From: Caldilineaceae bacterium
GTDB taxonomy: Bacteria > Chloroflexota > Anaerolineae > Caldilineales > Caldilineaceae
Reading direction: 5' to 3'
Assembly (NCBI GenBank): GCA_041391125.1
Contig: JAWKON010000042.1
Coordinates: 3,154 to 67,153 of the forward strand
Length of the DNA: 64,000 bases
Shown in pieces: positions 11,701-62,012 of this stretch. A program made the translations under genes and the position numbers. The notes under the pieces are model-generated. The model searched no databases and had not been told where the DNA came from. It saw only the letters and a program-made list of their open reading frames with translations. Every line of letters starts with the position of its first letter. Positions within the stretch are counted from its first letter, which is position 1.

Positions 11701-11890
11701 TGATCAACAGATTACACAGATTTGAAAGATTAAAATATCTACTCAACAGGATCTCATGTGGATGACCCGCTTTGGGTTCGATACGGCCGGAAACTGCACC
11801 GGCCTACTCAACCGCCGCTTGCCTTGTCAACCACATGAGATCCCAAAGAGCCGACAAAAAAATCTGAGAAATCTGCGTAATCTGTTGATC
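11701..11890. mobile_element. 190-bp MITE-like composite element with 22-bp terminal inverted repeats
   Basis: The TIRs gatcaacagattacacagattt (11702-11723) and aaatctgcgtaatctgttgatc (11869-11890) match 21/22. A nested perfect 13-bp IR (11749-11761 / 11831-11843) encloses a half copy of the GGTTGAGTAG...GTATCGAAACC element (11762-11824). It has no coding capacity. Confidence 0.6.
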
Positions 11891-11904
11891 CTTCCCCTCT
11901 CTGT

Positions 11905-12976
11905 TTAAAAAATGATGACATTCCGCAACGCTTTCGCGATTGACCGCCGCAATGGCCTCGTTGATCTCCGCCAGCGGATAGCGCTTTTGGTGATTAACTC
12001 GTCCAGCTTGAGCCGGCCTTCGTGGTAGAGTTCGACCAGTTTGGGGATGTCTACACTCAGGCGGGTGGAGCCCATTTTGCTGCCCAGGACACGCTGGCTG
12101 TCGTTGGCAAAGTTGGCCGCTTCCAGCTCCAGCTTGATGCCCGTGGCGGGTATGCCCACAATGACCAGCGTACCGCCGTTGCGCATGAGCGTAGCGCCCT
12201 GCTCGATAGCCCTGCTGCTGCCGGCGGTGATAAAGACAAAATCGGCGCCACACTGCCGGTCAGTGCCTGCACCCGGCTCTGCACGTCCTCGGTGCGGGGA
12301 TTGATGGTGTGGGTGGCGCCAAAATTTATGGCCGCGGCCAGCTTGCTTTCGACCAGGTCCAGCGCAATGATGGGCTGGGCGCCGGCCAGGCGCGCCCCCT
12401 GCACGCTGTTGAGCCCTGCGGCCACCGGCGCCAATCACCACTACGCTGCTGCCCGGCGGCACGTGGGCCGTGTTCACCACCGCCCCAGCCCGGTGATCAC
12501 GCCGCAGGCCAGCAGCGAGGCGCTCTCCAGCGGCATCTCTGGCGGGACGCGCACAATCTGGCGATTCATGCACCACCACAGATTCGGCAAAGGCGCCGCA
12601 GCGCATGGCCGCCAGAATGGTCCGACCGTCCTTGGTGTGCAGCCGCCCGTTGGCGTCAATGGGCATGGACGCTTCGCACAGATGGGGCTGCCCCTGCGTG
12701 CAGAAATAGCAGCGCCTGCACGAACGGATCAGCGTCACCACCACGTGGTCGCCCGGCTGCGCCAGCGTCACGCCTGTTTTCCACGTCGGTGACCACGCCG
12801 GCGGTCGTGCCCACACGGCGGGCAGCACGCCACCCCACGCGCTCTCCATGTAGTGGATGTCGCTGTGGCAAATGGCGGCGGCCAGCTTGACCATCACCAC
12901 CAGCCTGCGGCGGGTCGATCTCAATCTCTTCAATAACGAGCGGGCGCCCAAATTCGTAACAGACGGCTGCTTTCAT
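11905..12976 (-). pseudogene. zinc-dependent alcohol dehydrogenase (MDR family), several frame shifts
   Basis: The start MKAAVCYEFGRPLVIEEIEIDPP is at 12976. The metal site and the rest (CHSDIH, CRRCYFCTQGQPHLC, VVIGAGG, GTLVIVG, RYPLAEINEAI) are spread over three minus-strand frames (ORFs 12656-13129, 11905-12951, 12057-12434, 11804-12253). Confidence 0.75.
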
Positions 12977-13018
12977 AGATCGCGTGTTTTCTGTTTGGTT
13001 AGTATTATATTTGTTACT

Positions 13019-13147
13019 GTGGCGGGTGGCGAGTGGCGGGTGGCGTGTATTGGTTATAAGCACCGAGGAGTAGGATGCTAGACACCTTTTTTGTTGACGG
13101 TCCCAAGACGAGTTTACGCCACCCGCCACTCGCCACCCGCCACCCGC
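13019..13147. repeat. word hairpin, family GGTGGCGAGTGGCG (long loop)
   Basis: gtggcgggtggcgagtggcgggtggcgtg (13019-13047) is complementary to acgccacccgccactcgccacccgccacccgc (13116-13147). A single G-rich arm of the same words lies at 28148-28190. Confidence 0.8.
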
Positions 13148-13431
13148 TCAAAACGTGCTCTCCGGCGTGGTCGACGGACACCAGCGCGCCCAGCAGATAA
13201 TCAATCAGCGCCTTGCTGCGCCTCGGGCGTGCCGATGCGGTTGGAGGGCGTCGACGGCGTTGGAAAGCACGTAGCGGTTTTCATCTTTGAGCACCTGTTG
13301 GAGGGCGGGAATCGCACTCCCGCTGCGCACCCCAGCCGCGCCAGTGAGAGCGCGCCGGTAAAGCGCACTTGGCCGTCGGCGTCGCGCAGCGTTTGCGGCC
13401 AGCGCATCGACCACACCATCGCCCGCCACAT

Positions 13432-14634: not shown

Positions 14635-14676
14635 GGATTGGTCCCTCCAAAATCTGACTGTGGATTTTCAGATGAT

Positions 14677-14842
14677 GATCAACAGATTACACAGATTTTA
14701 AAGATTTCTTTTTTCGCATCTGTGTAATCTGTGCAATCTGTTGATCAAAAAAATCCGTTGACAACTCTGAGAAAACTACAACCGCAGATTGCGCCAATGA
14801 GCGCAGATTTTTGTCTGCGTCGTGCTGCGTAAATCTGCGGCT
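14677..14842. repeat. two adjacent word hairpins, family CAGATTaCaCAGATT
   Basis: 14677-14746: gatcaacagattacacagatt ... atctgtgtaatctgtgcaatctgttgatc. 14780-14842: aaccgcagattgcgcc..gcgcagattt ... gcgtaaatctgcgg. Confidence 0.8.
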
Positions 14843-16426: not shown

Positions 16427-16444
16427 TCGCCAAGGTAGCGAACG

Positions 16445-16552
16445 ACGGTTGAGTAGGCTCCGGCAGTTGGGAGCCGTATCGAAACCAGAGGGAACTGGTC
16501 AACCCGTTGGGGCTCGATACGCTGCAAACCACCGCAGTTACTCGACCGGCAC
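16445..16552. repeat. ~125-nt palindromic element (family GGTTGAGTAG...GTATCGAAACC), full copy
   Basis: acggttgagtaggctccggcag...ccgtatcgaaacc...ggctcgatacgctgc...cagttactcgaccggcac. The arms are mutually complementary. Confidence 0.85.
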
Positions 16553-16585
16553 TTGCCTCACGCCTTCACTGGCCTTAATTTGCGC

Positions 16586-17351
16586 CTACGCGATTAATGC
16601 AATAGACGCCCCGTGCGCCAGTTCCACATCGAGCAGACCGGCGGAGTCCGCATTGTTGGTGCGCAATTGTAAATGGCCAATGGATTCCCCCATGCGCGCT
16701 ACCTGCTCAGCGCCCGGCGCGTTGGAGGCGAGCGGCTGCACAATCGTCAGATCGCAGTTGCCCAGCGCAAACTCCACGCTGTGAGCATCAACTTCACGTT
16801 GCTCGTGAACGAGCGCGGCATTGAGCAGCGCCCCATATTTGGCCAGCGCCGCCGCCATACTCCGGCATAAACACGGTCAACGCTACATGTTCGTCGCCCC
16901 ATTTTCGTGCGTCACCTTGCCCGCATCGTCCGGCACGCAAAATGTGGGGCGTCACATCGGTGATCAAAAAACGACAGGCGCGGCCGCCCACATTGGTGGA
17001 TCGCCACCGATCCGCACGCCGTCATAGCGGTCGCGATGGCTGGCAGCGGTCGCCGCATTCAGCGCCGTCCGCAGCCGCGCCACATCGCCGTCAATGTCCG
17101 CCGTCAACAGCGCATAACCGCCAAAGCCTTCGCCATAGGCCAGAGTGTCAATCGTCCGGTCAATCTCATCGGGATTCTGCGGCGCTAACAGCTCCAAATA
17201 CGAGCCGTCCGCCAGCGCAATCAGCCCGTTGTGCGTCGCCTTGTGCGTATGTTTGCCGCCATAATAGACCGTAAAGCCCAGCGCCCGATAGTCGGCCATA
17301 GCCGCCTCCAAATCGCGCACGGCAATGATGAGGTGGCCGAAGTTGCGGCAT
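16586..17351 (-). pseudogene. VOC/glyoxalase-like domain protein (PF13468-like), frame-shifted
   Basis: An AAGGAG RBS precedes the ATG at 17351. Deleting one C at ~17342 gives MPQFGHLIIAVRDLEAAMADYRALGFTV... The C-terminal part continues in ORFs 16794-16991 and 16586-16858. Confidence 0.65.
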
Positions 17352-17365
17352 GATTGACTCCTTGA

Positions 17366-17476
17366 GCGATTGCGTATTGCGTGACATCGTAGTGCGTGAA
17401 CCGGTTTAGAATCTTGTATCGATGCAAGCAACTCAACCGGTACACGCAATACGCAACACGCAACACGCAACTCGCC
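17366..17476. repeat. word hairpin, family GTATTGCGTATTG / CGCAATACGCAA
   Basis: gagcgattgcgtattgcgtg ... cacgcaatacgcaacacgcaacacgcaactcgc. The loop contains cttgtatcgat..caactcaacc, which resembles the core of the palindromic family. Confidence 0.8.
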
Positions 17477-17501
17477 CCCTACCCTACAATTCCTCGTCCC
17501 C

Positions 17502-18388
17502 ATGCTATCATCCCCTATGGATCAACACAAGCTGCCGCCCACCTTTGCTCTCTCAGCCAGTCGAGCTTGCAGGCGTTTGACGATTGCCCGCGCCGCTTTT
17601 GGTTGGCTTACGTGCAGCAGTTGCCGTGGCCTGCCGTGGAGGCCGCGCCCGCAGGATCACGAGCTGCTTATGTGGCTGGGCGGCGCGCCGCATTTGCTCA
17701 TCGAGCGCACCGAAATTCTGGCCTGACAGCACCCTGTTTGCCGCCAATTTAGAGCCGCCGTCAGAATGGTATCAGGCCTATTTGCGCCATCGCCCGGCCG
17801 ATCTGCCCACCGATTTTGTGGAAGTGGAGCACATTCTCAGCATGCCCTTTGGCGTGGGTGAAGAGCGCTATCGCCTGGCGGCCAAATATGACTTAATCGC
17901 GGGCGCGGCAGGTGGCTCTCGGTCGTGATTGTAGATTGGAAAACCACGCGCAAACGCACCGAGCCCAGCATATTGCGGCAGCGCTTGCAGACGCTGGTCT
18001 ATCCCTACGTCTTGGTCGAAGCCAGCGCCAAACTGCTCCTTTGGTCCGGTCAAGCCCGAACAGGTGGAGATGCCTACTGTTTGTGGGCGCGCCGCAGCAG
18101 CCCGTGCGCTTTCGCTACGACAGCGCCCAACACGCCGCCGCCGAGACGCGGCTGCAACAGCTTTTGGCCCATGCGCTAGCCGGCGAAAATGAGCAGGATT
18201 TCCCCAAAGTGGCCGACACGCCCATCAACCGCAAACGCTTCTGCAACTATTGCGTCTATCGCAGCCGCTGCAACCGCGGCATCCACGCCGGCAATCTTCC
18301 GACGTGGACGACGCCGAAGAGTCTTCGTCATCGACCCGACGCTGCCCTCGAATTCACGCTGGACGATGTGGATGAACTGGCTTTTTAA
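17502..18388 (+). pseudogene. PD-(D/E)XK (Cas4/RecB-like) nuclease with C-terminal Cys cluster, frame-shifted
   Basis: LSQSSLQAFDDCPRRFWLAYVQQLPWP, then HLLIER, VIVDWKTTRKR, LQTLVYPYVL and FCNYCVYRSRCNRG are found in three frames (ORFs 17396-17752, 17584-17928, 17925-18179, 17912-18388). Confidence 0.6.
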
Positions 18389-18510
18389 ACAAGGATTGTA
18401 GGGATTTTTATTAACCGCAGATGCCGCTTCACTATTGCCAATTTGCACAGATTTGGTTGTCTCCGAAAGAGAAATGGCCCTTTGAGATCTAATGTGATTG
18501 ACAAAAGGTA

Positions 18511-18623
18511 GCGGCGGTTGAGTAGCCCCAGCACTTTCGGGGCGTATCGAAACCAAAGCGGGGTCAACCACGCGAGATCCTGTTGAACCAGAAAAATCTG
18601 TGTAACCTGTAAAATCTGTGGTT
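18511..18623. repeat. half copy of the palindromic element followed by a CAGATT-family arm
   Basis: gcggcggttgagtagccccagcactttcggggcgtatcgaaaccaaagcggggtcaaccac (18511-18571), then aaaaatctgtgtaacctgtaaaatctgtggtt (18592-18623). Confidence 0.8.
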
Positions 18624-18634
18624 CCACTTTTCTT

Positions 18635-21036
18635 ATGGAACGCATCTGGACTCTCTCCTCCCCGCCGAATCACCATTGAATTTCACAAAGCAGTTGGCGG
18701 CCATCCATTGGTGGCGCAATTGCTGATGCAGCGCATCCGCACACTGGCAGCCGCCCGCTCGTTTTTGCACACCGAGCACTACTCCCCGCGCCCCCCACCA
18801 ATCTGATCGGCGTCGAACTGGCTGCCCACCGCTATACGAAGCCATCCACACCGATCAAAATATACTGGTCTGGGGTGACTTTGATGTGGACGGCCAGACC
18901 AGCATCGTCGCTGCTCGTCGCAGGTTTGCAGGCGCTGGCCGAGCCTGGACGCGGGTGCTTTCACGTCCCCAACCGCTTTACCGAAAGCCACGCATCCGCC
19001 GCCATGCTGCAAAAAATGGCTGGACGATGACACCTGGCCGCCCCATCTGCCGCTCAGTTGCGATACCGGCATTGCCGAAGCCGAAGCCGTCACCCCGGCC
19101 AAAGCCCACGGCCTCACCGTCGTCCTCACCGACCATCACGATTTGACCGCCGAGTTCAGCGGCCTTTCCCCGCGTTGATCCGCTGTGGGCTGAGTTGGGG
19201 AAAGGGGAAAGGGAGGCAGAGCGCCGAAGCTGCACAAGCCCCCTCTCCCCTTCCCCTTCCCCCTTTCTCCCCTTCCGCCTCTCCGCGCGCCACGCCGACG
19301 CCATCGTCAACCCCAAATTCCAGCCGGACGACGATCCGTTGCGCACGCTGCCGGGAGTGGGCGTGGCGTATAAGCTTATGCAGCAGCTTTATACGCTGGC
19401 CGGACGCAGGTTTGAGGAGCATGATCTGCTCGATCTGGTGGCGTTGGGCATTGTGGCCGATGTGGCCGAGCAGTGCATGACGCCCGCTATCTGCTGCAAT
19501 TGGGACTCGAGCAGCTCAAACGCACGCGGCGCACCGGGCTCCTGGCGCTCATGGACGTAGCGCGCGTGGTTCCGGCCAACATCAGCACCGACGATATTGG
19601 CTTTCAGATCGGCCCGCGCATGAACGCGCTGGGTCGGCTGGAGGACGCCACCATTGCGGTTGAACTGCTGACCACGCGCGACGCCGTGCGCGCCGGTCAA
19701 CTGGCCGCCAAATTGGAGCGGCTCAACCAGCAGCGCCGCCTGCTGACCAGCCAGATTACAGCAGCGGCGCTGGAGATGATCAACCGCACGCCCCAGCTTT
19801 TGGATTACAATGCGCTGGTGTTGACGCATCCGGCTTGGCACGCTGGCATTGTGGGCATTGTGCCTCGCGGCTGGTGGAGGAATTTAGCCGCCCGCCGTGC
19901 TGCCATGCTCAACCCGCCCGGTGAAGGCTCTGCGGCAGCGCCCGCAGCATTCCGGGTGTGGACATCGGCGCGCCCATTGCCGGCTGCGCCCATCTGCTCA
20001 TTGGCCACGGCGGGCATCCGGCGCGGCCGGGCTCAGCCTGCAACCGGAAAAATATCGACGCCTTCCGCCGCGAGCTGGATCGGCAGATCGAACTGCACTG
20101 GCACCGCTGACGGCCCGCCGGGCTGCCCATTGACGTTGAGCTGCGGTTGGATGCCATCGATCTAAATTTGGTGAGCGAAACCAGCGGCTGGCCCCCTTTG
20201 GCAACGGCAACCCCACGCCCCAATTTATGAGCCGCGTCTGCATTGTCCACGATCAGCGCATGGGACGCGACGGCGCCCACCGCAAATTCTTACGTGCAGC
20301 AGACCGGGCCGATGGCGTCAAGTGGCCCGTGCTCTGGTTCAACCACAACGACGGCGAACTGCCGCCCGAGCCCATCGATCTGGTCTACACGCTCAACGTC
20401 AACGAGTTCCGCGGCGAACGCACGGTACAACTCATGTACGTGGCGGCGCGCCCGGCCGAGGAAGTCACCATTGAGCTGATTGCGGAGAAAACCGCCAAAC
20501 CGCGTATTCACGATCTGCGCCGCCAGACCGTGCAGCTTGGCGAGCTGCCCAAGCCACACGATGCCGTTTGGTATGCGGAAGGCACCCTGCTCATTGACGG
20601 CGTGACCTATGCGCCGCGCACGGCGGCGCGGCCGCATGCCGATCTGGTGCTGTGGACCATCCCGCCTTCGCCCGTGGTGCTGAATGGCATTTTGGAACGG
20701 GTCGAGCCGCGGCGCATCTTTGTGTGCGGCCAATCCACCACCAATGACCGGCTCGACTTTGTGCTGCAACAGACCGCCGCCATGTGCAAATACGCCTTGG
20801 CCCGGGATGGCCGCCTAGACATCAGCCGTATGGCCGCCCGCCTAGGCACCACCGAAGGCGTCATCCGCCACAGCTTACTCTGGCTGGAATGCAAAGAGTT
20901 GATCCGGATTGCCGAGTGGCTGGAGGAGGATGCGCTGCGTATCGAGACGCCCCAGCCCGCCCATCCGCCAGCCATTACCGCCGATGAACAGCGCGCCGAC
21001 CGGCGCATATCCTCCAAGCCGAACTGGATGCAATAG
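18635..21036 (+). pseudogene. recJ: single-stranded-DNA-specific exonuclease RecJ, many frame shifts and an internal repeat insertion
   Basis: HPLVAQLLMQR, VWGDFDVDGQTS, LTDHHDL, ADAIVNPK, LPGVGVAYKL, LVALGIVADV, GPRMNALGRLEDA, HAGIVGIV, GHGGH and NVNEFRGERTVQL appear in the order seen in E. coli RecJ but are spread over all three + frames. Last ORF 20227-21036. Confidence 0.8.
19196..19275. repeat. word hairpin (GGGGAAAGG family) lying inside recJ
   Basis: ttggggaaaggggaaagggagg ... ccctctccccttccccttccccctttctcccctt lies between the DHH motif (19131-19145) and ADAIVNPK (~19283). Confidence 0.75.
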
Positions 21037-21249
21037 CTCGCCGAGGTGGTTGCCTATCGCTGCTACTTTCAGCGGGTGAAACTGGATGAATTGGGGGATA
21101 GGGCAGGTCCATGCGCGTCCTCAATCGGTCAGTGGGGCAGTGGGTCAGTGGGTCAGTGAGTCAGTCCGTCGACGCGTCCATGACGCGCAGAGTCCCACCA
21201 ACAATCCCCAATAGCTCGAAGCACCCCTCACCCCTTCACCTTTCACCTT

Positions 21250-23376
21250 TCACCTTTTTCTCCGCCCCCTCCCCGAACTGGCCATCATCACCCTGGCCGC
21301 GATCCTGCGCTTCTGGCGGCTAGGCTATCACAGCATCTGGTTTGATGGAAGCGGTGAGTCTGCGCTGGGCCGTGATCGAGGGCATCGACTACATGTGGTC
21401 CATTACTCGTGGGCTGGTGGAGGAGAAGCACCCGCCGGCTCATTACACGCTGCTCAAAATTTGGCACTGTTTGCTCACGCCTTTGGGCTGGGCATGAATG
21501 ACGCTGATTGGTGCATTGGGCAGTCTGATGGGCGTATTAACCGCACTGGCGTGCTTCTTATGGCTACCGAAACCAGCGGACGCTTTCACCGGATTGTTGG
21601 CCGCGCTTCTGACCGCACTCAGCCCGGTATTTGGTCTGGTACAGCCAGGAATTGCGCATGTTTCAGCCAGCCACCACATTTCTGGTTTGGGCGGCTCTTA
21701 TTTTTTGCTGCGTCGGCAGGCAGAACAATTCCGCCATCGGCTGCTTTGGTGCTGACCGGTGATTGCGCTGGATTTGGCGCTCTATACCTATCTATTTAGC
21801 GTAATGAGTTGCCGGCGGCGGGATTGGCGCTAGTGGGATTTACGATTTTACGAATTACGATTTACGAAGGGCGACAATCACAATTCGTTGCGAGAAACAA
21901 CTCAGAAGCCGCTCCTTCCTCTTTCCCCTTCCCCCTTTTCCCTGCGTCGCTTCACCGAAGGCGTCATCGCCCCTGCGCTTCATCGTCGCTCATCTTCCTG
22001 CCGCTGGCGCTCAACGCACTCAGCGTCAATGCGGACGAAAGTACGCCCGGTGTGGCTCTTGCCAACTTTTTGGAGCAACAGCCGCCGTTTGTTAAAAATC
22101 TTCACGATCTGGCGCGAACGCTGGCCCGATTTGGGTGGGGGAGGCAGCGGTGGGGGTTGGGTGGGGTTGTTGCGATTGGCTTGCGGGGGATGTAAGAGAA
22201 AGTGGGGAAAGGGGGAAAGGAGAAAGGGAAGCAGATTGGCGGGACAGGATATGGCTGTGGATGTGGATTGGGGGCCACTGGTGGCGGCCAATGTGATGTC
22301 GAGCCGCAGCCATTCGATTTTTAAGGAGGAGCGCTATCTGATTTTTATGGCGCCCTCGTGCTGTGGGCCATTGCGCGGGCGGTGGTGATTGGCCTGCTGG
22401 CGGGCGGTGGGCGGCCGGCGCGATGGTGGTAATTATGCTGGCGGTCATGCTGCCGCTTTTGTGGACGCCGGGCGCGCATCGCGAGAATTGGCGGGCGGCC
22501 ACGATCTATATTGCGATTTTTCAATATGAGCAGATGAGCCAGGGGCTGACCGGCGTGGGCGCATCGGGCAGCGCGGCCAGCGCGGTGGTGGCGCACATCA
22601 GCTATACGCACCAGCCGGTGGATTGGTATTTGAAGCAGCGCTATACGCAGGCCGAGCTGCCCGTCTTTGGCCTTTTCGGCAATCCTTTAACGCCCGATCA
22701 GGTGGACACGGTCATCGCGCCGCCGCTGTTGGGCATTTCCAAAGAGCTGGGCGCGGCCACGCTCTGGCTGACCCAGAGTCATTTGGAAGGCATTGACGAT
22801 GAACACCTGGTGGAGGGCTGGCTCAACACGCATTACCCGCTGATCACCGAGCAGTATCCGGCGGGGGTGAAGCTGAGCGGCTATGCACTGAAAAGCATAT
22901 ATGATGCGCTGCCGCCGCTGATTGACGGCGCGGCGCGCCTGAATGCCGAACTGGCGCCCGGCATGATGCTGGCCGCCTGCGAAGTGCTGACGCCACAGGC
23001 CAGCGCCACCGATCCGCAGCTTCATCCGCCCAGCGGCTGGGTGCATGTGCGGCTCTGGTGGCAGGCCACCGGGTCAATTGGGCAGAATTTTACAGTCACG
23101 GCGCAGGTGAGCAACGCAAGGCGTGGGTGAACCGTTGCCGCGCGCCAATGACGCGCTGGGAGCGCTTTCCACCAGCAGTTGGCGGCCCGGTCAATATGTG
23201 CGCAACGAGTTGGACATCAATTTGAACCTCGAGACACCAAGTGGCGCATATACAGTTTCCATTGGCTTGCGGATGAAAACGGCGCCAACCTGCTGCGCAA
23301 TACAGAGTGTGGTTCTGTACAGATTGTCGTTCAACCGGGCATCGCGGGTGAGCAATATCTAGCGGCGGTTGAGTAG
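21250..23376 (+). pseudogene. GT39/ArnT-like (PMT_2) membrane glycosyltransferase, frame-shifted and interrupted by repeats
   Basis: [28 protein letters not shown]..., [23 protein letters not shown] and a long soluble C-terminal ORF (22363-23130) that continues to ~23376. The N-terminus is not definable. Word repeats lie at 21837-21870, 21913-21944 and 22196-22232. Confidence 0.55.
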
Positions 23377-23420
23377 CCCCAGCAGTTCGGGGCGTATCGA
23401 AACCAAAGTGGGTCAACCAC
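23361..23420. repeat. half copy of the palindromic element
   Basis: gcggcggttgagtagccccagcagttcggggcgtatcgaaaccaaagtgggtcaaccac, almost identical to 18511-18571. Confidence 0.85.
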
Positions 23421-25422: not shown

Positions 25423-26856
25423 ATGATATTTGGTCAACCAATCGACTTTGAATGGCGCTATTTTGATAACGATGAGCGCTGGTCCGCCTTGAGCAGGGTA
25501 TCGGCCCAATTGAACGCCAATTTGCGCCGCGATCACGCTATGCGCCGGATGAGCGGCGATCTGCGCCTGGGGCTGTACGCGTTGTGCGGACTGATACTGT
25601 TCTTTACCGCCGCCATTATGACCACCGGCGCCTCAGATCTGCCGGAAGAACGCCGGCAGATTGGCGTGGCCAGCAATCTTTATACCACGCTGGCGCTGGA
25701 AGAGGAGGCGCGCCGAAACAACGATGAAAGTCAGCTCGCCCGGCTGATCGACCCCCAGATCGGCCAGCGCTGGCAGCGAGCGTGGACGGCACTAGGGGCG
25801 GCGCAATCGACCGACGGTGAGCGTTACGGCGTGCGCATTGTGGAGCTAAGAGGCATCGATTCCCTGATGCAGGCCGAGGTGGTTTTTGACCGTCCGCTGC
25901 CCACCGGCTGGTGGCAACTGGGACCCTATCGCGAAACACGCTTCTATCGCCAAGGCCCAAACGGCTGGCTGCGCACCCTGCCGCCCGCCGCCTTTTGGGG
26001 CCAAGAGCGCGTGCTGGAGACCAATCATCTGCGCTTTGAATTTCGCGAACGCGACGCCGCTACTATTATGGCCATTGCTAACCGCATCGAAGAGAGCTAT
26101 CTATCGCTACGCGAAGTGCTTGCCTTGGACGAGTTTGAGGCAATCGAATCAGCTATCAGTCGGTCCGCCTCGGCCATTTCAGCCACCCGCAATATAGTCA
26201 ACCCAGCCACCGACAGCGCTGCCCCCGTGGAAAAGATCACCATCCGCCTGACATTGGAGCAAGTTAGCGGGCGCGGCAGTTACGGCAACCGCTTAGAGGT
26301 GACGGCGCCGCTCATGCTGCCATCGCCGGCGGATGTGACTGCCGTAGACTTTCTCACGCACACCGTGATCAGTCGCTTGACCACGCTGGCCGTGGACCGA
26401 TTGGGGACGCCAAATGATGATTTTATAGCCAACGCCAGCTTTGCCTATTCCTGGCGCAACATGCGGCGCGGCGTGCGCAGTTGGCTGCGCACCGAGCTGA
26501 TTGGCGTTCCTTACTATTGGGATGCCCAGGCCAACGCGATTTTGCGCAGCCAGCGCATTGCCCAATTGCCGCTGTCATTGACCGAGATCACCGATGTCAA
26601 CGCCGACCGGCTGGCCGATCGGGATTATCTCATGTGGCAATCAGCGGCGGCGGCGTCCGTGGTGCAATACGCCGTAAAGACATATGGGCGCGAGGCCATC
26701 CCGCCGCTGATGGAAGGCTTCCGCCACGCTCACTCCTGGCAGGAACTGCTCGACGATACTTTTGACGCAACTTACGCAGACTTTGAAGCCGATTGGAACC
26801 GTTTTTTGCAAGAGCAGCTTGAATCAACTACAGATTACACAGATTTTACAGATTGA
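25423..26856 (+). CDS. membrane-anchored hypothetical protein
   Basis: An AGGAGG RBS lies 9 nt before the ATG at 25423, and there is one N-terminal TM helix (LGLYALCGLILFFTAAIM). No catalytic motif recognised. The last 10 codons are encoded by a CAGATT-family repeat. Confidence 0.5.
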   Translation: MIFGQPIDFEWRYFDNDERWSALSRVSAQLNANLRRDHAMRRMSGDLRLGLYALCGLILFFTAAIMTTGASDLPEERRQIGVASNLYTTLALEEEARRNNDESQLARLIDPQIGQRWQRAWTALGAAQSTDGERYGVRIVELRGIDSLMQAEVVFDRPLPTGWWQLGPYRETRFYRQGPNGWLRTLPPAAFWGQERVLETNHLRFEFRERDAATIMAIANRIEESYLSLREVLALDEFEAIESAISRSASAISATRNIVNPATDSAAPVEKITIRLTLEQVSGRGSYGNRLEVTAPLMLPSPADVTAVDFLTHTVISRLTTLAVDRLGTPNDDFIANASFAYSWRNMRRGVRSWLRTELIGVPYYWDAQANAILRSQRIAQLPLSLTEITDVNADRLADRDYLMWQSAAAASVVQYAVKTYGREAIPPLMEGFRHAHSWQELLDDTFDATYADFEADWNRFLQEQLESTTDYTDFTD

Positions 26857-26900
26857 GATCAGCGCAGAGTGCGATGCACGCAGGCAACAATCAACACAAA

Positions 26901-27045
26901 CGAACAATCGCCCATCTGCGTACGTTGCACTCGTAGCGGGTATTGCCAACGAACAATCGCCCATCTGCGTGCGTTGCACTCGTAGCGGGTATTGCCAACG
27001 AATAATCGCCCATCTGCGTGCGTTGCACGCGCAGCGGGTATTCAT
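26901..27045. repeat. three tandem copies of a 49-bp unit upstream of the DUF3500 gene
   Basis: cgaacaatcgcccatctgcgtacgttgcactcgtagcgggtattgccaa starts at 26901, 26950 and 26999 with a few substitutions. The array ends 14 nt before the RBS/ATG at 27059. Confidence 0.85.
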
Positions 27046-28794: not shown

Positions 28795-28941
28795 GGTGGT
28801 TGACCCGCTTTGGTTTCGATACTGCCGCTGTTCTCTCAAGGCTGCCAACTGCCGCAGCCTACTCAACCGCCGCTTGCCGTTTCAAGGTCATGAGTTCTAA
28901 AAGAGCCCCAAAAATCTGTGCCATCTGCATAATCTGTAGTT
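28795..28941. repeat. half copy of the palindromic element (opposite arm) followed by a CAGATT-family arm
   Basis: gtggttgacccgctttggtttcgatactgcc...gcagcctactcaaccgccgcttgcc (28795-28876), then aaaaatctgtgccatctgcataatctgtagtt (28910-28941). Confidence 0.8.
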
Positions 28942-31163: not shown

Positions 31164-31282
31164 TGAGTATTGCGTATTGCGTATTGAGTATTGCGTATTG
31201 AGTGTTGAGTAGTCCGCTAGAGAATCTTGTTTCGATATGAGTTACTCTGCCCGAATACTCAACACTCAATACTCGATACGCT
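31164..31282. repeat. word hairpin, family GTATTGCGTATTGAG
   Basis: gagtattgcgtattgcgtattgagtattgcgtattgagtgttgagtag ... gaatactcaacactcaatactcgatacgc. Confidence 0.85.
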
Positions 31283-36984: not shown

Positions 36985-37123
36985 GAACGGTGGTTGAGTA
37001 GCCTGGGCAGTATCAGGCGTATCGAAACCCAAGTGAGCGGGACGAGCCCGTTTGGCTTCGGCGTGAGCTCAGTCGAACGGTTTCGATACGGCCAAAAACA
37101 GCCCTGGCCTACTCAACCGGCGC
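36985..37123. repeat. palindromic element, full and nearly perfect copy
   Basis: ggtggttgagtagcctgggcag...ggcgtatcgaaaccc ... ggtttcgatacggcc...ctggcctactcaaccggcgcc. Confidence 0.9.
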
Positions 37124-37254
37124 CAACTGCGTATAAAGAATAGCATCATTTGGGCAAGTTTGACATTGCGCCCAAATGGTGTTATTCTTCTCCACGCGCA
37201 CACGTATGCGCATACCACCCCAATCGCGCAAGCGAAGTCCAAAACGATTCAATC

Positions 37255-37294: not shown

Positions 37295-37303
37295 CCTTTG
37301 CTT

Positions 37304-44578: not shown

Positions 44579-45399
44579 ATGAAGCACAGAATCCAATCCG
44601 ACTATAGCCAGACCAAACGGTGGATGTGACCCGTGAATCAGCCGGGTGGGACTATCTTGACCTATTTCGCCGTGGTGCGGTTGCAGCCCGGTGAAAGATT
44701 GCGCGGAAGCGACAGGTGGCGACGAGGTGGCGCTGGTGCCGCTGCAAAGGTGCAGGCACATTAGCCGCCAGCGACCAACAATGGTCGTATCGCGCGAAAA
44801 TGTTTTCACCCAGTTGCCGCACGTTATCTACCGCCGCCGGGCCAGGAGATCAAAGTGGGCAACAGCGCACGGTGCGCTGGGCGGCGCCCCGGCCACCGGC
44901 AAATATCCGGTGCGCCTCTTTACGCCAGAGGAACAGAAAGTGGAAATCCGCGGGGGTGGACCGGCCGTGCTTGAAGTGCATCATACGCTGGCCTGGCCGC
45001 GCTGCCCGCCGAGCGGCTGATTCTCTTTGAAGTGTACGTGCCGGGCGGAACCTGTGGCCGCCCACTGTCACGACCGCGTGGGCGATTCCCCCTATTTGGA
45101 GGAGACCTACTATTACCGCATCCAGCCCGAAAACGGCCAGCCTTCCACACAACTACCGCCGCGACACCGACTTCGATGAAGTGATTCCAGCTCGCCACGG
45201 CGACTGCGTGCTGGTGACGCAGGGCTTTCACCCGGTTGCGGCCAACCCCAACTCCAAATATCTATTTTTCTCAATTACTTAGCCGGTGAGCCGCAAAACG
45301 AGGCCGTGACTATCGCCCCTTTGAAGACCCGACACCACCTGGATCAAGAAAGACAACTGGGACGCCAATCAGATGACGTTGCCGATTCAATGGAAGTGA
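44579..45399 (+). pseudogene. iolB: 5-deoxy-glucuronate isomerase, multiple frame shifts
   Basis: GWDYLD..VVRLQPGE, EVALVPL, SRENVFTQLPHVIY, KYPVRLFTPEE.KVEIRGGG, ERLILFEVYVPGG, HCHDRVGDSPYLEETYYYRIQPENG and GFHPVAANP appear in IolB order across three frames. Confidence 0.7.
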
Positions 45400-45488
45400 A
45401 GAGGACAAGGTGACAGGATGAAGAGGATGACAAGGTGATATGGTGACTTCTTGAGCTCAGTCATCTTGTCATCTTGTCATCTTGTCAA
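45400..45488. repeat. word hairpin, family GATGACAAG
   Basis: gaagaggacaaggtgacaggatgaagaggatgacaaggtga ... agtcatcttgtcatcttgtcatcttgtca, lying between iolB and iolD. Confidence 0.85.
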
Positions 45489-45506
45489 ACCACAAGGAGA
45501 AACCTA

Positions 45507-47430
45507 ATGAGTACGAACGCCACCACCCGCCTGACCATGTCGCGGGCAATCGTGCAGTTTTAAAAATCAATACAGCGAACGCGATGGGGTTGAGCACAAG
45601 TTTTTGCCGGCTGCTTTGGCATCTTTGGCCACGGCAATGTGTCCGGCATGGGGCAGGCGCTGCAGCAATATCCCGACTTTCGTTATTATCAGGCGCGTAA
45701 TGAACAGGCTATGGTGCATACTGCGGCCGCCTGTCTGAAACATGCCAACCGGCTGCGCACCCTTGCCTGCACCACCTCCATTGGCCCCGGCGCCACCAAC
45801 ATGGTGACCGGCGCCGCCACCGCCACGGTCAACCGGCTGCCGGTGCTGCTGCTGCCCGGCGACATTTTTGCCCGCCGCAATGTGGCCCCTGTCCTCCGCT
45901 TGGGAATCGAATGGGAGCACAGCCAGGACATCTCGGCCAACGACTGCTTCAAACCGGTCAGCCGCTACTGGGACCGCATCAACCGGCCCGACCAGCGCTG
46001 GTTACGTCGCTCATCAGGGCCATGCGCGTGCTCACCAGCCCGGCCGATACCGGCGCCGTCACCGTGGCCATCCCGCAGGACGTGCCAGACCGAAGCATGG
46101 GATTACCCCAGCGAACTCTTTGCGAAGCGTCTGGCGCATTCCGCCGCAACCGGCCCGATGCTGATGCGATCAAACGGGCGGCGCAAAGATACATCCGCAA
46201 CGCCCAGAAGCCCATGATCATCGCCGGCGGCGGCGTGGCTCTATAGCGAAGCCACGGCCACGCTGGCCAACTTTGTGGAGCGCACGGGCATCCCCGTGGG
46301 CGAGACGATGGCGGGCAAAGTATGCGCTACGACAACCCACTCTGCCTGGGCGCCGTAGGCACCGCTGATACTTCTGCCGCCAACATTGTAGCCAAAGAGG
46401 CCGACCTGATCATCGGTATCGGCACCCGCTACAGCGACTTTACCACGGCCAGCAAAACCCAGTTCCGCAACGCCGACGTGCATTTTGTCAATATCAACGT
46501 AGCCGAGTTCGATTCCGCCAAACATAGCGCCATCCCCTCACCGGCGATGCCAAAGTTACATTGGAAGAGCTGCTCGGCCTTTTGGATGGCTACATCTTGA
46601 AGCCAATCAATCTCAAGCGCGCAAGCTACACGATGCGTGGGAAGCCGAAGTGGATCGCCTCTACGCCATCCAGACCGCCGACAGCGGCTTGCCCTGGCAG
46701 GCGCGCTTATCGGCGCCGTCAACGACCACGGCGACCCCAATGCCGTCATGGTGGGCGCGGCGGGCAGCCTGCCCGGCGACATGCACAAGCTGTGGCGGGC
46801 GCGCCATCCCAAGCAATATCACCTGGAGTATGGCTACTCATGCATGGGCTACGAGATTGCCGGCGGGCTGGGCCTCAAATGGCCGACCCGGACCGCGAGG
46901 TCTATGTCATGGTGGGCGACGGCTCCTATTTGATGATGAACACCGACCTGATCACCTCGGTGCAGGAAGGGTATAAGCTGACCGTGGTGCTCATGGACAA
47001 CAGCGGCTTCCGCTCCATTGGCTCGCTGAGCCGCAGCCTGGGTCAAGGTGGCTTTGGCACCCGCTACGTCTTCCCCGAAAATGGCGGGCTGCCCACCGAT
47101 GCCAAGGGCTATGAGGTGGATACGCTGCCGGTGGACCTGGCCATGAACGCCCTGGCCTGGGCCGCCACGTCATCGAATGCAGCAGCGTGGATGATGTGAT
47201 TCAGGCGCTGCAGGACGCCGAGCATTGACCGCACCACCGTCATCCACGTGCGCAACGACCGCTACCTGGGCGTCCCCGGCTACGAAAGCTGGTGGGACGT
47301 ACCCGTGGCCGAAGTCAGCGAGCTGGATTCGGTCAACGCCGCCCGCGAAGAGTGGGCGGAGAATCAGGTGATGGAGCGCGCTATTTTTGGAGAGCCTGTG
47401 AGGATGAGGGATGACAAGATGACCGGGTGA
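45507..47430 (+). pseudogene. iolD: 3D-(3,5/4)-trihydroxycyclohexane-1,2-dione acylhydrolase (ThDP enzyme), many frame shifts
   Basis: AAGGAG RBS, then MSTNATTRLTMSRAIVQFLKNQYSERDG...FGHGNVSGMGQAL...ARNEQAMVH...SIGPGATNMVTGAA...GDGSYLMMN (ThDP motif)...VVLMDN...WWDVPVAEVS, spread over all + frames. Confidence 0.8.
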
Positions 47431-47573
47431 CAAGGTGAATCCTGTTCTGGCCAACTGATTTCGTCGGCGCGTTGGGGCATGATTGGCGGCGGGAAAGCGC
47501 GGCGACAGCAGATTGGATTTGTTCGCCGCCTATCGTGCCCCGCCGGCCAACATTTAGTTGAGCCAATATCATA

Positions 47574-51179: not shown

Positions 51180-51286
51180 CAGAAACTCGCAACCCTACAA
51201 CAGCTTCAACCGGTACCCGCAACACGCAACATTCCAGTTTTCAACGCAACACCAAAACCAATACCATCCCATTAAGGAGGACCTCC

Positions 51287-52655
51287 ATGAAACAACGCAA
51301 ATTCTGGCTAATTTTCGTCCTGCTCTTTGGCTTGCTCATGGCGGCCTGCGCGCCAGCTCAGCAGGCCGCGCCTGCCGAGGAGCGACGCGCACAGCCGCAC
51401 CGGAAAAGGCGACCGTCGAATTTTGGTTCAACCCACCGTCGGGCGGCGTATCGAAGGCATCAACTGCATGGTGGAATCCGCCATTGACCCGTTCAATGAG
51501 CAAAGCGAAACTATTTTTGTCAACGCCGTGGCCAATCCAGATACGTGGAACGCCACGCGCACGGCACTGGCGGGCGGCGCCGGTCCGGATATTGTAGGGA
51601 CGCCGGGACCATCCTTTGTCTATGAATTGGCGGCGGCTGGCCAGCTTTTGCCGCTGGATGATTTTGTGGACACGCTGGGCTGGGACCAGAACGTGGTGCC
51701 GTGGGCCCTGAGCCTGGGCCAGGTGGACGGCAAGCTCTACAGCCTGCCCGATGAGCTGGAAACGCTGGTGCTCTATTACAACAAAACGCTCTTTGAAGCC
51801 AACGGCTGGGAGCCGCCCACCACGATGGACGAGATGACCGCGCTGGCAGAAAAAGTGGCCGCCGCCGACATTATCCCCTTCTCGCACGCCAATGCCGAAT
51901 GGCGGCCGGCCAACGAGTGGTTTGTGGGCGAATGGCTCAACCACGTGGCCGGGCCGGACAAGGTCTATCAGGCGCTCAAAGGTGAAATTAGCTGGGACGA
52001 TCCCGACTTTGTGACCGCCATGAACATCCTCAACGATTACCAGCAAAACGGCTACTTTATGGGCGGGTTGGAGCTCTATTACACGACCACTTTTGACGAA
52101 TTCCTGACCACCTTTGCCAAGGGCGAAGCCGCCATGAATATCGAAGGCACCTGGCGGGCGCAAGACCTGGTGGATGTCTATTTCACTGAGGATAACGGCG
52201 GCAACGAGTGGGACTGGGTACCCGTACCCTCCACCACCGGCGACGCCATTTTTGACATCGGCATGGGCCAAACCTGGTCGATCAACAAAAACGCGGCCAA
52301 TCCACAGGCGGCGGCGGAATTTCTGACCTACTTGTACTCGCCGGCCACCCAGGCCACGCTGATCCAGAAATGCGGCAAGGCGCCAGCCCCCGTCAAGCTG
52401 GAGGCCGATGCGCTGGACTCGATTGACCCGCGCATTGCCAGCATCTTCGCCGCCTTCTCCGAGGCCAACGACCAGGGTCGCTACGGCTACACCACCTGGA
52501 CCTTCTGGCCGCCCAAGAGCGACGCCTATATTTACGAAGAGGTGGAAAAAGTGTGGGCCGGCGACATGACCGTCGAGGAGTACCTGACCGGGCTCAACGA
52601 TCTGTTCCAGGAAGAGCTGGCCGAGGGCGCAATTCCGCCGATTCCGGAGCGGTAA
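51287..52655 (+). CDS. sugar ABC transporter substrate-binding lipoprotein (family 1 SBP); two frame shifts in codons ~30-60
   Basis: Lipoprotein signal MKQRKFWLIFVLLFGLLMAAC, then EKATVEFWFNPPSGG (third frame), then ORF 51327-52655 with typical SBP_bac_1 content. Confidence 0.8.
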
Positions 52656-52719
52656 GGGATGATAAGATGAAGGGATGACAGGATGACATGGTGACTATTC
52701 ATCTTGTCATCTTGTCATA
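52656..52719. repeat. word hairpin, family GATGACAAG
   Basis: ggtaagggatgataagatgaagggatgacaggatgacatggtga ... ttcatcttgtcatcttgtcat, lying between the SBP and permease genes. Confidence 0.85.
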
Positions 52720-52733
52720 GAAAAGGAGCAACA

Positions 52734-58707: not shown

Positions 58708-58843
58708 GAACGGCAGTTGAGCAGCCCTCGGCAGTTTGAGTCCTTGGGAGCGCAGCGGCAGTATCGAAACCAGAGTGAGCGGGTTTGACCCGTTTGGTCT
58801 CGATACGCTGCAAACGGCCGCAGCTACTCGACCGGCACTCGTC
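58708..58843. repeat. palindromic element, full copy
   Basis: gaacggcagttgagcagccctcggcag...gcagtatcgaaaccagagtgagcgggtttgacccgtttggtctcgatacgctgc...gcagctactcgaccggcactcg. Confidence 0.85.
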
Positions 58844-58927
58844 TGCACGGTCCGCCAGTCCTTCGCTTGATACATATGGCGGTAAATTCAGCCGTCCCCT
58901 GAACGTCTAAACGCAGTTTTAGGGCAT

Positions 58928-59230
58928 CCAGGGACGCGGCTTGACAAGCTTAGCCCTCGAGGATCATAAAAGACCCAATCAGAGAATTGATTGGGGTCTT
59001 TTGCTGCATTCCTTATAGAGATCACCCTTAAACATGGCACAAATGCAGGTTGTTTTTATGCGAGCCATTTGTGCCATGTTTATGGTTTGTCCATTAGTCG
59101 TACCAAATATACCACAACAAACAAGTTTGGGGGCATTCAAGGGGACGCGGGCTTCGACAAGCTTAGCCCTCGAGGATCATAAAAGACCCCAATCAGAGAA
59201 TTGAGTGGGGTCTTTTGCTGCATTCCTTAT
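58928..59230. repeat. two ~90-bp direct repeats, each containing a terminator-like hairpin
   Basis: Copy 1 is 58928-59016 and copy 2 is 59139-59230 (..gacgcgg.ctt.gacaagcttagccctcgaggatcataaaagacccc.aatcagagaattga.tggggtcttttgctgcattcctta). Both contain the stem gacccc.a.tca/tga.tggggtc followed by TTTT. Copy 2 ends at the stop codon of the cytochrome gene. Confidence 0.85.
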
Positions 59231-61513
59231 TTGCCGAAGATCGACATGATCTTCTCGATGACTGTGCTGAGCGTGCTGCCGGGATCTTCGCCCGCTTCGA
59301 TCAGATAACCGCCTTGCTTGGTGTGTTGGTTAAAGGAGATCAGGTCGCCCGCTTTGTCCTCATTGATCAACTCGGCGCGGTGGCATCCACCACAGGCGCG
59401 CGAGGCGGGGCCGGTGACGTAACTCGGTATGTTGCCGATGTTGCGGTCCCAACCGTTGATCGGGTCGGTGGCCGAAAGCAGACCGGGCAGCGCCTTGAAC
59501 TGATCCGGCACGTTGTAAGTACCCGTCACGTGGCAGGACTCACAATCTGTGCTGCCATGTTTGGGATAGGGGAACTCAATGTGATGCTGATAGTGCATGG
59601 CTTGCACCGGGTCGCTAAAGTCAATATCGCCAATATCGAAGGCCTGGAAGGAGTGAATCGCATGGATATAGGAATCGATGGAGCGCGACTGCAATTCCAG
59701 ATGCGAACCGCCGCTCTTGGTGATGTGGCACATTTTACAGACCACAATGTTGCCCCCGCGATCCGGTGAATGGAAGGTGGTGGCCAGCGCTTCATGGCAG
59801 TTGTTGCATCCATCCGCCACCTTGGCGACAGGCGTGTAAAAGTCATCGGCAAAGGCATTGGCGCCCAGGTCAAACGTCCGCGACGGCGCATTGAGCGCAA
59901 CCTGGACGCCCCCCGATTTCTCCAGATCCGGCATGACGCCAATCTCCACTCTTTTGACGACGCCGGCCGACACCAAACCAAACCAATTCGACAAATCGGC
60001 CGTCACTTCCCAACTGCCGTCGGCGGCCAATACGGTCGTAAAGCGCGGGTGCTCCGTACCCACCACATATTCCAGCGCTCTTTGATCGTTGTTGTCAATG
60101 GCGCCGTCGCCGTTATCATCGGTCAGGCGCTCATGGGGGCCAATGATGAAATTCTTCGTGTCGTACCCATACAGACCGACCATCAACGTGGGCGTAATAT
60201 CCGCCACATCGAGCCCGGGGACATCCGGTGACTCGGCCGCGCTAAAGGTGACCGTGAGCATGGCGCCATCCAGAGATGCGCTGTTGATGGTAACGGAAAT
60301 GGCGTCGGAATACTTGAGCCCAGCAGTGGTGTAGATCACGTTGTTATAGCCGCTGTGAATTTCCCTAAAGCTTGGCCCCTCTTCGCCCTCACCATGACAC
60401 CCCGTACAGGACTTGGTGTTTAGGTCCATGCCATCATGCTCCGACGACTTGGCCAGGAGGGTCTGCAAGGCGAGTTTGTTGGTGCCATGCCTCGGAACCG
60501 GTCACAGGATGGCAGCTTTTACAGGTTTCTACGGTAAAGTTCGCATCGGTCAGCCATCTTGTCCAGTTTGCCCTCGTGACAGGTCAGCACAGTTGCCATG
60601 ATTGCGGATACGGGAACTCCATGGAGTGCGACATATGCACGTCGTTCATCAACCTTGTTTTATAGGCGTACTGGGTCTCCTGCTCGGGAGTCAATGTAAC
60701 TTCCTTGGCCAGATACGAAGCTGCCAGCGCCGGGTCGTCGACCAAAAGCTGCCATTCCACATGGCCGCCTTCCCCATTATCCAGATGGCAGCCCTTGCAG
60801 ACATAAAAATCCGTGGTGGGATCGTGGTTGACCTCGCCATAGATGTACCTGTGCTTGAGAAAAGGTGAAGTATGACACTTTTCACAGCCGGCCGCATTGG
60901 CGGCGGAAACAGATAATCCACCCCGGCGCCGGTTTGCAGCACTGGCAAAGGGATATTTCACTTCGCCGGCGCGCCGGCAGTTGACCGGACCGTCTCATCC
61001 GCACCGTACAACACGATGAGGCCCGCCATATTGGTGACATCCGGGGCCTCGCCGACCAGAGTGCTCGTACATCCGTCGGCGCCATCGCAGGTTGGGGATC
61101 GCCCAGCAGCGATAAGCGTTCACCGACCGGCTCAAACTGAATTTTTCACCGGTGTACGGTGTAAAGTAGATGCCCAGCGACTCCACTCGTCGGCATCAAT
61201 CGGTGACAGTCATCTTTGGTGATTTCCGAACGTCACTGTGCTCGTATCGGGCACCGTAATGCATACGCCAAATCGGTGACCTGAATGACGCCATCCTGGA
61301 TACACCATCATAAGACGCCTGATGTTTGGCACCGGCGTCTTTATGACAGTGGTGCACTGATCCTGGCTGCACATCCACTGTGGCAACAGTCGTGAGAGTC
61401 GGGCGGGACGGCTGACAGCGGCGCCCGGCCACGCCCACGCAGCCCGCCAGCCCAACCATGACTATAAAGAAGACAAAAATAAGGGAGAGCCCCCCCACAA
61501 GTTTCGTTTGCAT
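59227..61513 (-). pseudogene. multihaem (about 10 CxxCH) c-type cytochrome lipoprotein, several frame shifts
   Basis: AAGGAG RBS and the lipoprotein signal MQTKLVGGLSLIFVFFIVMVGLAGC at 61513. CxxCH motifs: CTGCH, CNNCH, CKMCH, CESCH, CGGCH (ORF 59227-60468) and CEKCH, CKGCH (ORF 60584-60961). CKSCH is in-frame in a short fragment at ~60500-60520. CATCH (60577-60592) and CTTCH (61343-61356) are restored by single-nt corrections. Confidence 0.8.
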
Positions 61514-61888
61514 AAATATCTGCTCCTTGCTTCGTTACAGGGATTTACCGCATCGTCGCGTAAGGATTTGGATTGTATGTCTCATTACATTAAATAGAAA
61601 ACATCATAAGGCATTTTCCCTATCCAATACACCTGCCACTTGGCTAGTCATTACCTGCTACCTAATAAGTCTTTGGCGCTGGTCAGCGGCATTGATGGCG
61701 GCAAGCGGCCGGCCATATGAGTTCGAGGGCGATCCAAAGTGCGCCTGATCATAGCGTTGGAGGGTGGTGGGGCGTGGGGGATAGTGTGGGTGGGGGATGG
61801 ATTGTAGGGGATGGTGGTGAGGGGAGTCATCGGGATTTTCCCACATATGGAGCAAGCTAAGGCATTTTGGCGCCTAAAACAGGGAGAT

Positions 61889-62012
61889 GAACGGCGGTTG
61901 GGATAGGCTCCCGGCAGTTGGAGGCCGTATCGAAACCAAAGTGAGCGGGTCGACCCGTTTGGTCTCGATACGTGCGGAAACTGCCCCGCACTACTCGACC
62001 GGCACTCGCTTA
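61889..62012. repeat. palindromic element, full copy
   Basis: gaacggcggttgggataggctcccggcag...ggccgtatcgaaaccaaagtgagcgggtcgacccgtttggtctcgatacgtgcgg...cgcactactcgaccggcactcg. Confidence 0.85.

Follow-up and report, generated by a model that had tools for sequence, protein, structure and literature searches.

Small palindromic repeats of the REP/BIME kind (repetitive extragenic palindromes and bacterial interspersed mosaic elements) are well known. The REPs of Escherichia coli and Pseudomonas are mobilised by RAYT, the REP-associated tyrosine transposase, also written TnpA-REP. This study concerns a repeat of related form in the genome of a Caldilineaceae bacterium (phylum Chloroflexota; assembly GCA_041391125.1), described from a stretch of 64,000 nucleotides (contig JAWKON010000042.1, positions 3,154 to 67,153 of the forward strand), hereafter referred to as the window. 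The repeat unit is a module of approximately 45–52 nt, in which 21 invariant bases, termed the clamp, enclose a hairpin of free sequence. We consider it probable, though by no means certain, that the module is a non-autonomous REP/BIME-like mobile DNA element acting as a folded single DNA strand.

The closest described families are the GTAG-tagged REPs, BIMEs and REPINs (REP doublets forming hairpins) (PMC3733652, PMC6006769). REPs are recognized by a GTAG or GTGG tetranucleotide lying 0–2 nt 5' of an imperfect palindrome, an arrangement that the module possesses: its GTAG borders a short hairpin on the 5' side, and the stem of this hairpin varies by complementary changes. The module further shares with these families hundreds of intergenic copies, occurrence as singles and as head-to-head dimers with GTAG outside, a preference for convergent and unidirectional spacers, and insertion inside larger palindromes, as described for the GTAG-15 family of A. 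variabilis and the GTAG-23 family of T. roseum (PMC3733652). In contrast to them, it has 17 further fixed bases beyond GTAG and a closing basal stem, P1; its clamp, enclosing unrelated hairpins, is common to Chloroflexota, Actinomycetota, a spirochaete and phage contigs; and no module-flanked RAYT was found, several carriers having no Y1 transposase gene. Its hairpin P2, with 5–6 bp and a loop of approximately 7–8 nt, also falls outside both ranges of a published REP rule (stem 7–20 bp, loop 2–5 nt; PMC6006769). The GTAG tag, high intergenic copy number and inverted doublets beside singletons are all present, whereas a cognate flanked RAYT was not found; the link that defines REPs and REPINs thus fails, even though tag, dimers and placement match.

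Three other groups of elements invite comparison. Insertion sequences (IS) of the IS200/IS605 group, such as IS608 and ISDra2, which move by single-stranded 'peel and paste' transposition, also carry imperfect hairpins with conserved unpaired bases that confer polarity. Single-stranded targets of this type would explain the module's preference for hairpin tips, and a replication-strand bias was seen in one genome, G292, alone. However, no TnpA is associated with the module, which is far smaller than an IS; the bias was not repeated in a second genome, G078; and no conserved target tetranucleotide was found. The CGTC-tagged REPs, enterobacterial repetitive intergenic consensus (ERIC) sequences and Correia elements or neisserial miniature insertion sequences (NEMIS) resemble the module in abundance, small palindromic intergenic form and the absence of a known mobilising enzyme. 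They differ from it in sequence and are taxonomically narrower, and none has been described with a 21-nt clamp around a free hairpin. Integron attC sites share a folded single strand, conserved paired boxes, unpaired polarity bases and a variable terminal hairpin, but the box order of the module is reversed (GTT...AAC against RYYYAAC...GTTRRRY in attC). The module reads GTTGAGT...CGAAAC, with GTT/AAC as the only pairing, and its copies neither lie in cassette arrays nor show a link to intI.

Likeness to attC, and likewise to hammerhead, K-turn, T-loop, parS and LexA-box motifs, was rejected by sequence reading, as the core positions do not fit. The mycobacterial TRIT motif was also considered; it is reported as restricted to Mycobacterium. 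A literature search with the clamp words returned chance primer matches only and, in the sources searched, no description of this family. The features not described there are the 21-base clamp shared across phyla, the free hairpin it encloses, the absence of a RAYT link, and high copy number in genomes without a Y1 gene.

Architecture and copies of the module

The module consists, in order, of the 5' clamp word GGTTGAGTAG, a hairpin of free sequence, and the 3' clamp word GTATCGAAACC. The ends of the clamp pair to form the basal stem P1, which is GGTT/AACC in the Caldilineaceae genome and is lengthened in other taxa by covarying pairs, e.g., CGCTGGTT/AACCAGCG and CGGTGGTT/AACCACCG. Between P1 and P2 lies an invariant, asymmetric and non-complementary internal loop, with GAGTA on the 5' strand facing GTATCGA on the 3' strand. 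The GTAG of this loop abuts P2 directly on the 5' side; GAGTAG is found in approximately 95% of 375 modules, its final G being the first stem base of P2, which is continued by 5 further base pairs. The sequence of P2 is free provided that pairing is kept. The fixed bases beyond GTAG are GGTTGA on its 5' side and GTATCGAAACC on the 3' side of the hairpin.

An earlier note had presented the repeat as a palindrome of about 125 nt in four full and four half copies. Sequence inspection confirmed the element at all eight places, where a covariance model, R1, gives 12 modules. The supposed half copies, attributed in that note to composite or split elements, are instead complete single modules, because each carries the clamp, the hairpin and the internal loop and has an outer stem of its own, variable in sequence, that closes it. 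The true repeat unit is thus the module of approximately 45–52 nt, occurring alone, in inverted pairs, nested, or at the tips of other palindromes. The flanks quoted for the full copies are roughly correct, with some copies deviating by 1–3 mismatches.

In the window, R1 calls four inverted doublets and four singles, plus one marginal relic; bit scores given below are those of R1. With at most one mismatch allowed, GTATCGAAACC is present at 12 places in the window (chance expectation 0.58), a count reached in 0 of 100 shuffles, and a reversed-pattern control gave no match in any genome searched. The first doublet pairs a left module at 16441..16492 (+; GGTTGAGTAG, hairpin GCTCC/GGAGC, GTATCGAAACC; 57.1 bits, E 1.3e-12) with a degenerate right module of the GGTC/GACC type at 16505..16553 (−; 16.3 bits). 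In the second, a left module at 36986..37035 (+; 52.5 bits) and a right module of the GGTT/AACC type at 37073..37124 (−; 52.2 bits) are separated by a long 49-nt spacer of the 48/49-nt class. The core of this spacer, at 37036..37072, includes an extra segment, GGCTTCGGCGTGAGCTCAGTCGAAC, that recurs in approximately 13 doublets genome-wide. The left module of the third doublet, at 58709..58777 (+; 11.7 bits), carries approximately 17 extra nt of the CCTTGGGAGCGCAGCGGCA type between hairpin and 3' clamp, a variant class that likewise recurs genome-wide; its partner, of the GGTC/GACC type, lies at 58790..58839 (−; 39.6 bits). The fourth doublet comprises a left module with a mutated 5' clamp, GGTTGGGATAG, at 61890..61943 (+; 28.7 bits) and a GGTC/GACC-type right module at 61955..62006 (−; 44.6 bits).

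The single module at 11768..11819 (−; 41.7 bits; DNA fold z = −3.28) sits within an outer shell stem, GATCTCATGTGG...CCACATGAGATC, spanning approximately 11747–11838, with CAGATT-type arms outside it at 11701–11731 and 11862–11890. A second single, at 18510..18560 (+; 53.8 bits), lies in a shell stem of approximately 18486–18580, followed by a CAGATT-type arm at 18587–18624. The remaining two are located at 23361..23410 (+; 53.3 bits) and at 28806..28874 (−; 38.2 bits), the latter with an extra internal segment and a CAGATT-type arm at 28914–28942. The association of such arms with these copies, already remarked in the earlier note, therefore holds. The marginal partial match at 31229..31263 (−; 13.5 bits, E 0.25) is a possible relic and overlaps a separate repeat family, D12.

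The copies in the window represent a small part of the genomic complement. The assembly comprises 8.95 Mb in 182 contigs, with 57% G+C and a completeness of 87%; going by the names of its protein homologues, the genome belongs in or close to the Caldilineaceae. A genome-wide search with the pattern GGTTGAGTAG-N(8–60)-GTATCGAAACC, allowing few mismatches, bore out the expectation of further copies, yielding approximately 375 modules; exact clamps number 245. Among 104 close pairs, 98 are head-to-head doublets with the GTAG ends outside ('+-'), 4 are '-+' and 2 are '++'. The doublet spacer is mostly 23 or 24 nt, with long classes of 48 or 49 nt, and approximately 174 modules are singles.

Pairing, distribution and genomic placement

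Sequence variation among the copies follows the pairing of a single module. In the Caldilineaceae genome, the P1 pair T4–A8' is TA (GGTT/AACC) in 307 modules, CG (GGTC/GACC) in 62 and another combination in 6, and the pair G2–C10' is changed to AT in 8 copies. The earlier note had been puzzled by two arm positions, one of which appeared G–U-compatible on the plus strand and the other on the minus strand only. This puzzle vanishes because both positions pair with each other inside one module and not between the arms of the doublet. P2 is approximately 96% Watson–Crick among distinct sequences, with 3–4 pair types per position. In a cross-phylum alignment of 53 sequences from several phyla (A1), 80.9% of cells are paired compared with 64% in shuffles, and the covariation score of 0.344 (0.105 in shuffles) was reached by 0 of 500 shuffles, with slid controls at 0.065–0.121. 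Covariation of this kind characterizes structured RNA families, yet it is equally expected of a DNA hairpin.

The exact clamp occurs in many metagenome-assembled genomes (MAGs) of Chloroflexota, in Actinomycetota (Gordonia, Aeromicrobium, Microbacteriaceae and others) and in Treponema, and the hairpin between the clamps is wholly different in each taxon. Counts of exact clamps reach 281 in Gordonia sinesedis and 151 in Treponema bryantii, with 18 in one Anaerolineales genome, 9 in Aeromicrobium piscarium and 6 in Cryobacterium. Carriers in other phyla have the single module as their unit and also show tandem and tail-to-tail arrays. Within the family Caldilineaceae, there are 245 exact clamps in the source genome, 7 in a same-genus relative, 118 in one other genus and none in 16 other members. 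In a sample of the phylum, 17 of 401 genomes match, 15 of these belonging to one Anaerolineae-level family, which keeps the module at low copy number (1–39) in 15 of its 24 genomes. Across carriers, copy number ranges from 1 to approximately 375; the distribution is patchy and occurs in bursts. In the complete genome G292, five copies consist of an antisense module nested within the hairpin of a sense module. The module was also found in 43 IMG/VR viral contigs, where it occupies narrow spacers of structural operons: following the large terminase gene, between the genes for prohead protease and capsid, and beside an adaptor gene. Three of these contigs have the hairpin type of the Caldilineaceae genome.

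Modules are intergenic. In the source genome, 86 doublets were assigned to 31 convergent, 43 unidirectional and 12 divergent spacers, corresponding to an enrichment between convergent genes (31/86 against a background of 21%) and a depletion between divergent ones; in other genomes and viral contigs, divergent spacers hold 4 of 97 scored modules. Median distances from the modules are 104 nt for gene 3' ends and 158 nt for gene 5' ends, and no concentration at contig ends was observed. Nearly all apparent intragenic copies proved to be artefacts of crude calling of open reading frames (ORFs), leaving one plausible in-frame copy in a PMT-like ORF.

Many modules lie at the tips of larger palindromic shells. 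The shell CATGTGGTTGAC...GTCAACCACATG has 77 copies, whose cargo is the module (approximately 45 copies), a classical GTAG REP doublet (CGTAGGTCAC...) of the type flanking one RAYT gene of the same genome, or a third element; at least two other shells likewise have doublets at their tips. We infer from these alternative cargoes, and from the doublets at other shell tips, that the module targets hairpin tips. As a separate observation, the third cargo is an 88-nt element of three hairpins, ACCGCCGAATAAATTCGGCG ... CCGGCTTAAGCCGG ... CCACCGGTTTTAACCGGTGG, with loci in the Caldilineaceae genome that include C1:214270, C21:72822, C4:32907 and C11:73947, and with short forms that resemble internal deletions.

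Mobilisation and competing explanations

The earlier note named a miniature inverted-repeat transposable element (MITE), a REP/BIME-like element and a structured non-coding RNA as candidates and chose none. The REP/BIME-like reading fits best, because GTAG lies 5' of a hairpin, head-to-head doublets occur beside singles, and copies are intergenic with few in divergent spacers. The RNA reading is weakened by the lack of transcription-orientation bias, of a G·U excess and of an Rfam match, and the MITE reading is disfavoured.

As a mobile element, the module would fold as single-stranded DNA, and the non-complementary clamp bases would give the hairpin polarity. A hypothetical trans-acting DNA-processing enzyme could read the clamp bases together with the hairpin shape and insert the module, by copying or transfer, at single-stranded sites, for example in apical loops of other hairpins. 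Propagation would then be limited to copies keeping both clamp and pairing, which is our proposed reason for an invariant clamp combined with covarying stems; template-switch correction may additionally keep the stems paired. Phage genomes carrying the module could transfer it between hosts. A classical RAYT would not be required, and any effects on host transcripts, such as the 3'-end stabilisation or attenuation associated with REPs, would be incidental. Transposition of single-stranded DNA coupled to replication forks would be expected to leave a strand bias relative to replication. In G292 the sense strand of 21 of 26 singles lies on the G-rich strand of the replichores, as judged from sampled GC skew, whereas in G078, where the skew is noisy, 8 of 16 singles are concordant with the replichores. 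The GC skew of the Caldilineaceae genome carries no replichore signal.

Several results weigh against this mechanism. No protein family recurs beside modules at 113 loci of other genomes, where housekeeping families only were encountered. No IS-like partner was found in the Caldilineaceae assembly, and no gene recurs between module pairs 0.25–4 kb apart; the genes found there are ordinary, e.g., fructose-bisphosphate aldolase. Transposition is what we infer for the module family, and a filled/empty-site pair that would attest it was not found: in the same-genus genome G006, genes are approximately 80% identical and intergenic DNA is unalignable, and no further assembly of the source species is on record in the protein collection searched for empty sites. 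Nor was any per-copy target-site duplication seen. Stem covariation, too, can arise from template-switch 'palindrome correction' without selection. The 5' and 3' flanks are alike by subfamily (AGCGG.../...AGCGG; AGTGAACG.../...AGTGAACG) and not identical within a copy. None of the long multi-copy repeats of the assembly is a transposase; they comprise a DUF4399 repeat protein and a non-coding 1-kb repeat. The latter, present in approximately 7 copies of at least 88% identity (C37:77069-78123, C2:78037-78880 and C21:106311-107176), has no ORF of at least 90 aa and no Rfam match.

Among the alternatives, a structured RNA motif is unlikely. The module would then be a cis-acting element of 3' untranslated regions or operon spacers, or would be bound by a conserved RNase or other RNA-binding protein, with the internal loop as its functional core. 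An invariant loop between helices of free sequence, strong covariation across phyla, a resemblance, in our own reading, to a loop-E-like AGUA...GAA, and placement downstream of genes and in tight late-operon spacers of phages are all consistent with this idea, as is the fact that an inverted doublet would give one sense module per transcript from either direction. However, singles between co-directional genes show no preferred orientation, with sense:antisense counts of 49:35 in the Caldilineaceae genome, 19:16 in other genomes and 4:9 in viral contigs, and the sense strand carries G·T at a frequency similar to or below that of A·C, so that there is no G·U excess. Searches of Rfam gave no match in the window at the gathering score, none on a copy at E values up to 10, and none on Gordonia and Treponema loci at E values up to 1. 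Together with the patchy bursts among close relatives, the nesting of antisense copies in sense copies and the presence in phage contigs, these observations speak more for a mobile element of DNA than for a strand-specific RNA.

Mobilisation by a RAYT, as in a classical REP/REPIN system and here perhaps through cross-recognition of GTAG plus hairpin, also appears improbable. The REP-like traits cited above (PMC3733652, PMC6006769), namely GTAG at the hairpin foot and head-to-head doublets beside singles, argue for it. The genome also encodes a bona fide RAYT at C54:9150-9566, which scores 137.8 bits against an NCBIfam cut-off of 80 and is the only one of three RAYT-like genes above that cut-off, and genuine REP doublets share a shell with the module. 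Yet all three RAYT-like genes of this genome, whose assembly is 87% complete, are flanked by other REP types and not by the module, and R1 detected no module within approximately 1.5 kb of 17 Y1/RAYT loci, among them the ones in the module-rich genomes G015 and G292. Neither PF01797 nor NF047646 has a match in the carriers Gordonia sinesedis (281 copies), T. bryantii (151 copies), Aeromicrobium piscarium and Cryobacterium, and relatives that lack the module have RAYT and Y1 genes just as often. Moreover, between distant taxa, known REP families share the tetranucleotide only, not 21 bases.

Two further observations concern Y1-type enzymes in their own right. The Caldilineaceae genome contains a genuine REP/RAYT system, in which CGTAGGTCACACATGTTGTGTGAC and GTCACTCTGCAAGAGTGACCTACG hairpin clusters flank the RAYT at C54:9150-9566 (locus L003:940-1310 on C54); further loci of this REP include C2:236629 and C13:7125, and its doublets occur in the same shell as the module. 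In a family designated f14, all 24 genomes searched contain a Y1_Tnp-like domain (E approximately 1e-12 to 1e-15), mostly within an open frame of approximately 430–650 aa, e.g., G292:C1:1539025-1539381, G147:C41:57741-58103 and G404:C20:21021-21380. This frame resembles a conserved HUH-domain protein that may have been domesticated.

An ordinary MITE, in which the doublet would be a miniature inverted repeat derived from an IS with matching termini and the singles its decayed halves, is very doubtful. The doublet is indeed an imperfect inverted repeat of approximately 105–140 nt without an ORF, in a genome full of other palindromic repeat families. The singles, however, are complete and conserved, as numerous as the doublets (approximately 174), and each equipped with its own closing stem; covariation is found within one arm, not between arms; other phyla use the single module as the unit, with tandem or tail-to-tail arrays; and neither a per-copy target-site duplication nor, in the Caldilineaceae assembly, an IS with such ends was found. 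Least probable of all is a host-selected DNA site, a clamp hairpin bound by a nucleoid, gyrase, IHF-like or replication factor and kept for chromosome function, since the precedent of E. coli BIMEs, which bind IHF and gyrase, and the low-copy persistence in 15 of 24 genomes of one Anaerolineae-level family are set against its not being found in most relatives within the Caldilineaceae, copy numbers from 1 to approximately 375, presence in phage contigs, unrelated hairpins between hosts, and nested copies.

Returning to the mobile-element reading, a broader formulation is possible and is offered tentatively. The clamp GGTTGAGTAG / GTATCGAAACC may define a hairpin superfamily spanning Chloroflexota, Actinomycetota, Spirochaetota and phages that is propagated without RAYT or Y1 enzymes, either by an undescribed enzyme processing single-stranded DNA and reading the asymmetric internal loop, or by an activity of the folded nucleic acid itself.

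Accompanying repeats and significance of the family

The window contains several other repeats beside the module. Family D12, found at 17408–17458, 31221–31271 and 51181–51231, consists of GTATCGA followed by ACTCAACC on the same strand. It combines a 3' clamp half with the complement of a 5' clamp half and could be related to the module or derived from it by rearrangement. The CAGATT-type arms consist of CAGATT or AATCTG words spaced every 8–9 nt. In addition to the four described beside single modules, they occur at 4529–4559, 14676–14746, 26824–26854 and 37268–37296, often as inverted pairs around other palindromic elements, forming the outer layer of nested palindromes. Arrays of GGTGACA/GATGACA-type words of 7–8 nt and their complements are located at 5450–5547, 45389–45494, 47406–47438 and 52654–52724; such words also flank some doublet shells elsewhere in the genome. 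Purine-rich arrays of GGGGAAAGGG words and pyrimidine-rich mirror tracts, sometimes arranged as inverted pairs, lie at 9194–9276, 19242–19292, 21226–21269, 21914–21957 and 22204–22241.

Tandem repeats are represented by a 118-nt unit, of which three copies stand at 10314–10667 (100%, 93% and 64% identity) and a fourth lies at 44390–44507, at a distance of 34 kb, and by a 49-nt unit in three copies at 26899–27045. A VOC-family ORF at 16964–17503 (−; 179 aa) has homologues of approximately 257–261 aa, which align to only approximately 63–69% of the ORF, and it may be a frameshifted or truncated gene.

Small palindromic repeats shape the intergenic DNA of bacteria, and to our knowledge a mobilising enzyme is known for the RAYT-associated REPs only. 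Cultured strains without any Y1 transposase gene carry the family described here in hundreds of copies, namely Gordonia sinesedis JCM 12126 (281) and Treponema bryantii NK4A124 (151). A defined oligonucleotide bait and two culturable hosts thus provide a tractable handle on the missing enzyme or binding factor. In addition, model R1 could be used to mask a repeat family that fragments the assemblies of Chloroflexota MAGs and creates spurious ORFs.

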